Assembly (NCBI GenBank): GCA_963830365.1 | Contig: CAWHMU010000046.1 | Span: forward strand, 64,001 to 128,000 | Source of the DNA: an uncultured Chlamydiae bacterium | Lineage (GTDB): Bacteria; Chlamydiota; Chlamydiia; Chlamydiales; Parachlamydiaceae | Reading direction: 5' to 3' | DNA length: 64,000 nt | Shown here: piece after piece, positions 51,795 to 53,878 of the stretch | Numbering within the stretch: the stretch's first letter is position 1 | Layout of the letters: the number at the start of each line of letters is the position of its first letter | Position numbers and translations under genes: made by a program | The notes under the pieces: generated by a model | Told to the model about the DNA's origin: nothing | Databases searched by the model: none | Seen by the model: the letters and a program-made list of their open reading frames with translations, nothing else

Positions 51795-51939
51795 CATCGG
51801 GGTTCTTCTCTTTTAATCTATTAAGGTATAAGGACATAAAGAGAAGAACCCCGATGGGGTTATCTTTTGTTTGTAAAACCCGTAGCTGCGGATGTCTTCG
51901 CTTTCGCTCGCAAGCCTTAGCTGACGGGCTTCCGAGTAA

Positions 51940-52220
51940 CAATAGGTTGAATGCTTACGAAACTTATGCCTGCGTTATTGGTGGATATTTCATCATTTCT
52001 CCTGCTTTTGGAGTCGAAAGGCATTAATCATTAAAAAGGCGGAGGAAAGAACATAATGCCAGGCGATCTTCCGAACGGGATAGCTATGCTTCCCAATGAT
52101 ATTATCGCGATTCTTTCCGACCAAGCTACAAAACGGGCATTCAGCACCAGTGCTCGATGGGTCAATTTTTTCCACGAATTTTTGATTACCGCTATTCAAC
52201 CGGTCTTACTTTTTTTGTCT
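51940..52220 (-). ncRNA. Predicted bridge/seek RNA region downstream of the IS110 recombinase
   Basis: Contains CCCGU-UUUGUAG (52137-52126; matches target left flank plus core) and CCCGU-UCGGAAG (52079-52068; matches element right end plus core). RNA ends are unknown. Confidence 0.7.
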
Positions 52221-52223
52221 TTT

Positions 52224-53621
52224 TTACGCCGCTACGGCAACTAGTTTATAACCTAATTTTTCAGCTTTTTTATGCAACCCAGCCAAGTTTTTCATTGCAT
52301 GCATTTTTTCATTATATTCGGCTCCTTTTTCATAATATTGCCAGCCTTCCTTACACATGTGATATACCATTGTCGCTAGCTTATGCGCTCCAGCCTTAAT
52401 CCCTTTAGAGTTGTCCGTTCGGCCGCATATGCGCCTGATATGTGCTCCCAATGCTGCATCTGATTTTTTAGCTGCCACTGCAGACATTCTTAAAGCTTGT
52501 GAAATGTAATTGGCGCTTGGTTTTTGCCTTTTGCTTTTACGTCGTTTGCCTCCTGAAACATTGTTGCCGGGGGACAGTTTCAACCAGGAAGAAAATGCTT
52601 TTTCGCTATTCCATGCACTTACGTCAGTCCCTCCAAGTTCTGAATAAATGAGTAGAGCAGTACTATCTGCTATACCTGGCAGGGCAGTTAGGTCTATTCC
52701 CGTTTTTCTCCAGAGAGTGTCTCTGACACCAAAACAAAGATCATTTTTCTTAGGTTTTTTGAATTGAGAAAACTGAGGACGCTTTTTTTTATCCTTATGG
52801 TTCTCTGGTGGAGGCGTATTGACTACATCAGGAAATCGCTCAAGCTCCTTCTGAATGCATTCGTCACATGCGTCCAGCTGTTTATGTGCAAAATCGTATT
52901 GATCTAGGGCTTGCTTTAGCGAAAAAATATGTTCATCTTGATAATTCCCTGTCAGAGCTGCTACAAATAGGCTCTCTTCTTTTTTGCAAAGCTTATTCCT
53001 CATTGCAGCTAACTTATATGGATCTCTTTCACCAGCTGCTATTGCTCGTGTTATATTTAAACCGGAGACTCCCGCTATATCGCTTACAGCGGTGCTCAGC
53101 TTGATATTCATTAGCTGCAAGGCTTTTTCCATATGCAGAAGTGCATATTGCTTCGTTTTGATGACATTCATGCGCTGTCTTACATACGCCCGCAATTTTA
53201 AACGATCGCGTGGCGGGCGATAAGCAGCTCTTAATAGACCACAAGAATATAATGTTTGGATCCATTGAGCATCCACCACATCAGTTTTTCTCCCTGGTGG
53301 ATTTTTTACATTTTTAGCATCCACTAAGACAGGCATCAAGCCTGATTCTTCCATAATTTCATATAGGGGAATCCAATAAACACCCGTAGCTTCCATAACA
53401 CCAATTTCTACTTTAGCCTCTTTAAGAACTTTGACTATTTCACGGAGTTGAGGTGTCGTTGTACCAAATTCCCTCACGTAAGAACCACCTTTACCATCAG
53501 GAATAGCTACATGGATTAGCTTATCTCCTATATCGATGCCAGCAACAGTAGGATCGATATATCCAAGCCTGTTTTTATGTTGTTGTTTTTTGAAATGATT
53601 GGAATTGCTATTATTAGACAT
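52224..53621 (-). CDS. IS110-family DEDD recombinase/transposase
   Basis: GIDIG, MEATGVYW, RKTDVVDA (DEDD), LPGI, catalytic Ser in NVSGG, AHKLA. Confidence 0.95.
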   Translation of the reverse strand: MSNNSNSNHFKKQQHKNRLGYIDPTVAGIDIGDKLIHVAIPDGKGGSYVREFGTTTPQLREIVKVLKEAKVEIGVMEATGVYWIPLYEIMEESGLMPVLVDAKNVKNPPGRKTDVVDAQWIQTLYSCGLLRAAYRPPRDRLKLRAYVRQRMNVIKTKQYALLHMEKALQLMNIKLSTAVSDIAGVSGLNITRAIAAGERDPYKLAAMRNKLCKKEESLFVAALTGNYQDEHIFSLKQALDQYDFAHKQLDACDECIQKELERFPDVVNTPPPENHKDKKKRPQFSQFKKPKKNDLCFGVRDTLWRKTGIDLTALPGIADSTALLIYSELGGTDVSAWNSEKAFSSWLKLSPGNNVSGGKRRKSKRQKPSANYISQALRMSAVAAKKSDAALGAHIRRICGRTDNSKGIKAGAHKLATMVYHMCKEGWQYYEKGAEYNEKMHAMKNLAGLHKKAEKLGYKLVAVAA

Positions 53622-53878
53622 GAACGATCTCCTTTTAGCTTTTTACTGTGAGAAAAAGAAAGCTATTATAAGAGATCGTTCTTTTTTTTCGAATTATGAC
53701 AACCGTTACTTTCCAGATATCAGCGTTAAACCGCTTGGGCGCTACAAAGAGATGGCTTCGCCTAGCAAAATTCTTATACACTTCTTCTCATCCTTGGCCT
53801 GGATGTTTAAATGCACGAAATTAAACCAATAGCCTCAGCTTCGTCCCTTAGACCGATAGGTCCTTTGCTTTGAATAAC

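Follow-up and report, generated by a model that had tools for sequence, protein, structure and literature searches.

Does the non-coding 3′ end of an IS110-family insertion sequence (IS) in an environmental chlamydia encode the RNA that selects its insertion sites? The element lies on the minus strand at positions 53743 to 51931 of the window, the whole stretch of 64,000 nucleotides (nt) analyzed here (contig C46, positions 64001 to 128000, of an uncultured Parachlamydiaceae assembly of 2.73 Mb in 48 contigs, 82% complete). Its single open reading frame (ORF) is flanked by 120 nt of non-coding sequence upstream and 293 nt downstream. An earlier sequence-only reading of this DNA had put the downstream region at roughly 290 nt and proposed that it holds a bridge RNA with target and donor guides. 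Our analysis indicates that this is very probably so: the element looks like a functional insertion sequence that moves by RNA-guided recombination, with the bridge RNA encoded in its 3′ end. It is well supported as a member of the class described in 2024 rather than a new kind of system, and its clade may already stand in the supplementary bridge-RNA tables of Durrant et al. 2024.

To place the guides, the ends of the element must be known to the nucleotide. The left junction, written for the minus strand, is ..CCATCTCTTTGT AG followed by CGCCCAAGCGG (AG at 53743-53742), and the right junction ..GTTACTCGGA AG followed by CCCGTCAG (AG at 51930-51929). Because AG occurs once in empty sites and twice after insertion, the boundaries are fixed, and AG is the expected shared core. 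As in other IS110 elements, insertion is site-specific, terminal inverted repeats are absent and a short core is common to target and donor. The AG core had been proposed from the sequence alone and holds at both junctions and in the 54 empty sites; an AG crossover had already been described for ISPpu9 (PMC12288879). Matches to the element occur at 15 places in the assembly, comprising four full copies at 100% identity, four at 94% (96% at the protein level), one copy interrupted by an insertion (C34), partial copies at the ends of contigs and a 60-nt relic. All left ends present are preceded by ..ATCTCTTTGT (also written ..CTCTTTGT), and the 60-nt relic by ..TATTTTGT; nine of the ten right ends are followed by AG and repeat sequence of the CCCG or CGCG type (AGCCCG/AGCGCG), the remaining flank (C47) being divergent or deleted. 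Copies with ends present all sit at ATCTCTTTGTAG/CCCGT (slash, crossover) in a repeat resembling repetitive extragenic palindromic (REP) sequences, whose conservation is highest at this same point, and the empty site TTTGTAGCCCG occurs 54 times in the genome.

The gene of the element encodes, as judged by profile matches, an IS110-family RNA-guided recombinase, which agrees with the earlier assignment. Its product matched DEDD_Tnp_IS110 (PF01548, E = 7 × 10−16) and Transposase_20 (PF02371, E = 2 × 10−9) in Pfam, and NF033542 “IS110 family RNA-guided transposase” in NCBIfam (210 bits against a cutoff of 140). Residues D30, E77, D114, D117 and S356 are invariant in a nine-sequence alignment (A1) and align with D11, E60, D102, D105 and S241 of IS621, the only solved relative (E = 1.4 × 10−7), where they are active-site residues according to Hiraizumi et al. 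(PMC11208158). ORFs are intact in eight copies in the genome. The length of 465 amino acids (aa), which had been singled out as long, is ordinary for the clade, in which relatives span 430 to 505 aa.

Relatives of the recombinase supplied the comparison on which the RNA model rests. Among 201 sampled genomes of the same order, 11 (the element's own included) held matches at E ≤ 1 × 10−20 with 42 to 59% identity. A search for related loci with the element's own protein alone found none, while a search with alignment A1 succeeded: scanning contigs with it confirmed 602 relatives among 621 candidate stretches, and the best 80 of the 602 were kept, giving 78 loci with 37 to 64% identity from Chlamydiota, Chloroflexota, Acidobacteriota, Pseudomonadota, Planctomycetota, Cyanobacteriota and others. 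A pattern requiring CCCG-like motifs and AG matched 83 of 120 loci. Sixteen of these were judged false by eye and dropped (L034, L037, L053, L057, L059, L063, L065, L080, L083, L090, L098, L109, L110, L111, L114 and L117), and removal of duplicates left 44 RNAs, of which 43 were aligned (A2), the second own copy of the 94% type being left out.

Across these 43 RNAs, the non-coding ends of relatives from many phyla share one two-loop RNA with conserved stems and variable guides. RNAalifold on A2 recovered four helices, P1 (GACC/GGUC), P2 (UGGUGC/GCCCG), P3 (UGG/CCG) and a variable hairpin inside P3, and 11 of the 16 pairs in all carried compensatory changes on both sides. A covariance model (R1) built from the 41 sequences not belonging to the element matched the window at 52170-52062 over its full length (77.8 bits, E = 2.9 × 10−18), which bears out the conserved downstream two-loop RNA that had been proposed. 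In the element's own genome R1 matched exactly the ten right ends, with no orphan copies, and it gave 87 matches over 91 related loci. The two parallel motifs that had been read as guides are both present (CCCGUUUUGUAG at 52137-52126 and CCCGUUCGGAAG at 52079-52068), but they divide into two parts. Their segments UUUUGUAG and UUCGGAAG, which are the left target guide and the left donor guide, each with the core, match the left target flank and the right end, respectively; CCCG(U), being the 3′ half of P2 and of P3 and so repeated in both loops, is a structural half-stem and no guide.

Whether such segments act as guides was judged by comparison across the family. The 8 nt ending at the core in each loop of the 43 RNAs were sought in the RNA's own locus. 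The donor-loop 7-mer was found at most 500 nt downstream of the gene (or RNA) in 32 of 43 cases, compared with 2.3% when guides were taken from other loci, and the target-loop 7-mer at most 500 nt upstream in 29 of 43 (1.9% with guides from other loci). For donor and target, respectively, 8-mers matched in 4 and 7 of the 43, and 6-mers in 37 and 31; several of the misses are loci cut by contig ends. Given these family-wide permutation controls, the matches between the element's own guides and its junctions exceed chance. Folding and covariation across homologs with different targets, the check that the sequence-only reading had named, thus turned out in favor of the downstream RNA: pairs are compensated, and the guides follow the targets. 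The core dinucleotide agreed between loops in 82 of 86 full-length R1 matches (63 AG/AG and 19 AA/AA; alignment A4, which is model-based and independent of the selection pattern), the other four being AT/AA or gapped, with no AG/AA mixtures. The core therefore varies in the wider family yet agrees between loops, as the mechanism requires.

The right-hand guides could not be placed from the sequence alone; one of them can now be assigned. With junctions set by the left guides, a column scan picked out the three RNA positions that lie 4 to 6 nt before the U of UGGUG: they form an antiparallel complement to the three bases that follow the crossover on its right (observed 0.65, 0.71 and 0.52; expected 0.25, 0.30 and 0.26; Z = 5.3, 5.3 and 3.2; n = 31). 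Over four positions, cognate pairs of guide and target formed a mean of 2.32 Watson-Crick pairs, compared with 1.02 in non-cognate pairs (n = 31), a value reached in none of 10,000 permutations, and a conserved C after this guide pairs with the core G. In the element itself the right target guide is CGAGC (52156-52152). Within the loop, the reader of the top strand lies 5′ and that of the bottom strand 3′. Directly after the target-loop core come two RNA bases that form a handshake-like extension: over 28 elements, the first agrees with base 1 of the left end in 96% and the second with base 2 in 82% (59% and 29% expected; Z = 5.6 and 6.8). These two bases did not match the first bases of the right target flank in the column scan, and a corresponding handshake of the donor loop to the first target bases was sought by column covariation and not seen. 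By sequence matching and covariation, three of the four guides are placed.

The fourth, the right donor guide, gave a different kind of signal. No RNA segment covaries as the complement of left-end bases 1-12 or 9-40. The donor-loop 5′ strand (14 nt) does, however, resemble in the same sense the 18 nt that immediately precede the left subterminal repeat on its 5′ side (cognate score 10.3, against 7.9 ± 0.43; none of 10,000 permutations; N = 19 after removal of six near-duplicates), while the complement orientation scored 8.5 against 7.6 (286 of 10,000 permutations). In the element itself, CGAUAAUAUC of the donor loop resembles CGCTGATATC of the left end (53725-53716). This likeness could reflect a bottom-strand contact across the left-end hairpin, or be a by-product of shared constraints. 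A further same-sense signal, in windows t5 −30/−24, was discounted, since wherever the RNA lies upstream these windows and the left end are partly the same DNA.

Taken as a mechanism, the 3′ non-coding end would encode a bridge RNA of ∼110 to 130 nt with two internal loops of the same build. Each loop would consist of an outer stem and two strands, 5′ and 3′, with a conserved inner hairpin (UGGUG..CCCG) between them. The RNA would be transcribed and bound by the recombinase, the element would form a circle, and the circle junction (..CTCGGA-AG-CGCCC..) would recombine with the site (..CTTTGT-AG-CCCGT..) at the AG they share, so that the insertion lands at the foot of a hairpin in the REP-like repeat. 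The element may still be active today.

Several results weigh against a working bridge RNA in this element. Because the 43 RNAs include related sequences, the guide counts are not independent events, and the RNAs were chosen by a pattern that itself demanded AG and a CCCG-like motif. The element's own right target guide forms four of five pairs with G/CCCG, with an internal A·C mismatch, and one of its two extension bases matches. Column covariation, fixed-register pairing and gapped local alignment all failed to reveal a right donor guide adjacent to the core. The minimum free energy (MFE) of the whole 296-nt end was no better than that of shuffled sequences (z = −0.58); a consensus scan gave no promoter before the RNA and no terminator flanking it; the predicted circle junction had no match in the assembly, though this is expected for an assembly; and none of the public RNA runs holds the sequence (in public DNA, five metagenome runs each hold 5 to 9% of the sequence words). 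The ordinary folding energy, together with the fact that no Rfam family matched within the element, would also suit a usual 3′ untranslated region (UTR), terminator or regulatory RNA of the recombinase gene, with the 7-mers matching by chance. That explanation is almost certainly wrong: guide matches recurring in 29 to 32 of 43 homologs against ∼2% of controls, the R1 match to the element's own RNA and the R1 matches at related loci already contradict it, and the RNA is independent of a 3′ UTR, since most relatives have it ahead of the gene.

The silence of the public RNA runs and the mismatch in the right target guide could also mean that the element is a bridge-RNA IS by descent that no longer moves, its copies being relics of a past burst and its RNA not made or non-functional; the truncation or interruption of several copies points the same way. 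We consider this unlikely, as four full copies are 100% identical and stand beside four of the 94% subfamily, all eight with open frames, the guides are identical in both subfamilies, and 54 perfect empty sites persist.

A second question is how much of the site choice might be owed to the shape of the target. The right side of the target is an imperfect 50-nt palindrome, and 13 pairs of sites across the genome lie in opposite orientation 130 to 210 bp apart, an arrangement like that of REP doublets forming hairpins (REPINs) or bacterial interspersed mosaic elements (BIMEs). A hairpin in the left end stands at the matching position, 7 to 22 nt from the crossover (relatives have hairpins of other sequence, as compared by eye). 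The recombinase could therefore recognize mainly the repeat hairpin (and the left-end hairpin) as protein to DNA, leaving the RNA matches secondary or incidental. The same pairing of palindromes is described for ISPpu9, in which the inverted repeat of the “A box” resembles a palindrome in the target (PMC12288879); a target stem-loop is reported to add specificity for ISPpu10 (bioRxiv 10.64898/2026.03.19.712850); and the missing core-adjacent right donor guide would fit as well. Even so, recognition mainly by protein is very unlikely, because, from phylum to phylum, the left guides change along with targets that are unrelated to each other, and covariation holds for the right target guide as well. 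Moreover, base pairing was required in ISPpu10 and the stem-loop merely enhanced recombination (bioRxiv 10.64898/2026.03.19.712850), so guidance by RNA and recognition of a hairpin would add up rather than compete.

The position of the RNA relative to the gene differs within the family. It lies downstream in 12 of the 43 RNAs aligned, all from Chlamydiales (both own sequences, L017, L018, L019, L021-L025, L043 and L074), and upstream in 31, the chlamydial L020 and L045 among them. In a quick IQ-TREE tree of 39 recombinases (four rows with ORFs of <380 aa were left out, and the row of L025, a wrong ORF with a branch length of 10, is to be ignored), all chlamydial rows fell into one clade (SH-aLRT, the Shimodaira-Hasegawa-like approximate likelihood ratio test, 96) with nine downstream and two upstream RNAs, the order of three branches not being settled, and the RNA was upstream in 29 of the 39. 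On this tree, the pattern would be explained by a single move of the RNA from left end to right end, two at the most. An origin of the relocated RNA from a tandem dimer was considered and rejected, as the spacer between stop codon and RNA scored 17 against the left end, with a shuffle mean of 17.1 and 1056 of 2000 shuffles as good.

Among the systems described so far, the closest by published features is ISPpu9 of Pseudomonas putida KT2440 (IS110 group; Pares-Guillen et al. 2025, PMC12288879), which was compared through those features. According to that account, the two share recombination at an AG present at both ends, a REP target whose repeats are often paired, an “A box” of ∼43 bp at the left end that contains an inverted repeat, a short “B box” at the right end, and a target palindrome right of the crossover. 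They differ in that the bridge RNA of ISPpu9 lies in the 5′ leader upstream of tnp, at the other end from the RNA of our element. ISPpu9 is further described as having the RNAs Asr9 and Ssr9.

IS621, as described by Durrant et al. 2024 (PMC11208160) and Hiraizumi et al. 2024 (PMC11208158), shares the two-loop RNA, loops that each read both strands around a shared core dinucleotide with left guides equal to the top strand, two guide-adjacent nt that match the non-cognate partner as a handshake (PMC11208158), and the aligned DEDD and Ser active-site residues. The protein similarity is nevertheless weak and IS621 shorter (328 aa compared with 465 aa), its core is CT rather than AG, and the order of guides in its loops is reversed relative to our element (PMC11208160), in which the extension adjoins the bottom-strand guide, the RNA lies at the right end and the core-adjacent right donor guide was not found. 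The seekRNAs of the IS1111-group elements ISEc11, ISPa11 and ISKpn4 (Siddiquee et al. 2024, PMC11187229) likewise lie downstream of the recombinase gene, with the segment complementary to the top strand 5′ of that complementary to the bottom strand, and these elements have subterminal inverted repeats. In contrast, their transposases are given as 330 to 350 aa (a comparison by published size) and their repeats as 7 to 17 bp rather than 6 bp, and in most protein relatives of our element the RNA precedes the gene, which is the arrangement of the IS110 group. That some IS110-type elements have their non-coding region downstream had already been noted by Siddiquee et al. (PMC11187229). In ISPpu10, too, an IS110 insertion is reported next to a target-encoded stem-loop in a repeated intergenic sequence, though with a CT core and the stem-loop on the 5′ (left) side, whereas our element has an AG core and its hairpin on the right (bioRxiv 10.64898/2026.03.19.712850).

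Read on the opposite strand, our element would have a CT core, a hairpin on the left as in ISPpu10 and the extension at the place it has in IS621, and the layouts of ISPpu10 and our element would then coincide. From this we infer, tentatively and with more doubt than confidence, that the AG-core clade may be a mirror image of IS621, with the guide order in the loops reversed and the two-nucleotide handshake beside the bottom-strand guide. In such a clade the gene-relative “bottom” strand might be exchanged first, the right side of the donor might be read away from the core, 17 to 36 nt into the left end, next to the subterminal repeat and across a DNA hairpin, and the RNA gene of the chlamydial elements might have moved once from left to right without loss of function.

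The known principle of bridge-RNA recombination is unchanged by these findings. What they provide is a fully annotated natural bridge-recombinase system from an environmental chlamydia, with an AG core, a mapped target and 54 free sites. That a single protein clade has the same RNA in some elements before the gene and in others after it amounts to a natural experiment on the importance of its position, and the missing core-adjacent right donor contact suggests that donor recognition may differ from that of IS621. Coordinates are collected in Table 1.

Table 1. Features of the IS110-family element and its surroundings, in positions of the window
Feature	Positions	Strand	Remarks
IS110-family element	53743..51931	minus	465-aa recombinase and 293-nt 3′ non-coding end
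Left target flank CCATCTCTTTGT	53744..53755	minus	belongs to REP-like repeat
Left AG core dinucleotide	53742..53743	minus	
Left-end non-coding region, 120 nt	53622..53741	minus	A-box-like donor module, then tnp leader
Left-end hairpin AGCG-GUUUAA-CGCU	53722..53735	minus	partly by eye
Left-end segment CGCTGATATC	53716..53725	minus	similar in same sense to donor-loop 5′ strand; candidate distal donor contact
Left subterminal inverted repeat AAGTAAC	53705..53711	minus	6-bp AGTAAC pairs with right-end GTTACT
Recombinase gene	52224..53621	minus	465 aa
Bridge RNA core, both loops	52062..52170	minus	full-length match of covariance model R1
P1 5′ strand GACC	52160..52163	minus	pairs with GGUC at 52122-52119, closing target loop
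Right target guide CGAGC	52152..52156	minus	pairs with top strand at core G and CCCG
P2 hairpin UGGUGC..GCCCG	52134..52149	minus	RNAalifold
Left target guide and core UUUUGUAG	52126..52133	minus	7/8 nt equal left flank CTTTGTAG
Two nt after target-loop core (CU)	52124..52125	minus	handshake-like
Outer donor-loop stem, 5′ strand GGAAAGAA	52111..52118	minus	pairs with UUCUUUCC at 52051-52044; MFE, by-eye covariation with L017
Donor-loop 5′ strand GAUAAUAUCAU	52096..52106	minus	
P3 hairpin UGGGAAGC-AUA-GCUAUCCCG	52076..52095	minus	
Left donor guide and core UUCGGAAG	52068..52075	minus	7/8 nt equal right end CTCGGAAG
Right subterminal inverted repeat GTTACT	51935..51940	minus	
Right end CTCGGA and right AG core	51929..51936	minus	AG at 51930-51929
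Right target flank, imperfect 50-nt palindrome	51879..51928	minus	CCCGTCAGCT..AGCTACGGG
Second copy, 5′ fragment	16766..17768	plus	element positions 1-1002, 99.5%; same left junction

The remaining observations concern the ends, the other copies and individual relatives. The 6-bp repeat AGTAAC/GTTACT is set in from the left end by 31 nt and from the right end by 6 nt, and measures 6 to 9 bp in relatives (by eye). Upstream of tnp, a consensus scan gave one promoter-like site (53692-53665), with counts no higher than in shuffled sequences. Next to the element, positions 51780-51878 of the window form a near-perfect hairpin between two inverted target repeats, one an empty-type variant (GAAG for GTAG) and the other occupied by the IS; this hairpin alone attracted weak Rfam matches (microRNA families, E = 0.005 to 0.35, far under gathering scores).

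The second copy in the window had been taken to sit at the same site as the first. It does share the left junction, but it is a truncated fragment that lacks the RNA region, being cut off at element position 1002 by a fragment of an ISL3-type transposase. That fragment (17769-18689) encodes 286 aa with matches to DDE_Tnp_ISL3, Zn_ribbon_ISL3 and a helix-turn-helix domain, and ISL3-type pieces of ∼800 nt at 89 to 93% identity occur on at least six other contigs. Elsewhere in the genome, the copy at C34:46954-50142 is split between element positions 226 and 223 by ∼1.4 kb of inserted DNA. The 60-nt relic (C21:79171-79230, locus L015, outside the window) is a mini-element in which the left-end module, up to the subterminal repeat, runs straight into a degenerate right end (GTTACTTGGAA..). 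Its site lies outside the repeat, and the left flank there, TTTTGTAG, equals the target guide at 8/8 positions; the mini-element looks like an A-box and B-box relic without gene or RNA.

Among the relatives, the AA-core subclade (19 of 86; L072, L073, L055, L070, L108 and others) comes from Mycoavidus, Salmonella arizonae, Bradyrhizobium, Telluria and several alphaproteobacterial metagenome-assembled genomes, and its target guides are A-rich (..AAAAAA). Relatives on plasmids (Citrobacter, Enterobacter, Nostoc and others), at ∼41% identity, bear no annotation beyond “IS110 family transposase.” At L115, L068 and L073 the RNA model matched twice, upstream and ∼140 to 240 nt downstream of the recombinase gene, and at L115 the guides of the two RNA copies differ; such loci hold either adjacent elements or a single one with two RNA modules, the arrangement of ISPpu9-ssr9. 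At the start of the recombinase gene of L022 (G136), an A-run separates an upstream ATG from the long open frame, and the two are not in the same frame, which could reflect a frameshift, a sequencing error or a non-ATG start.

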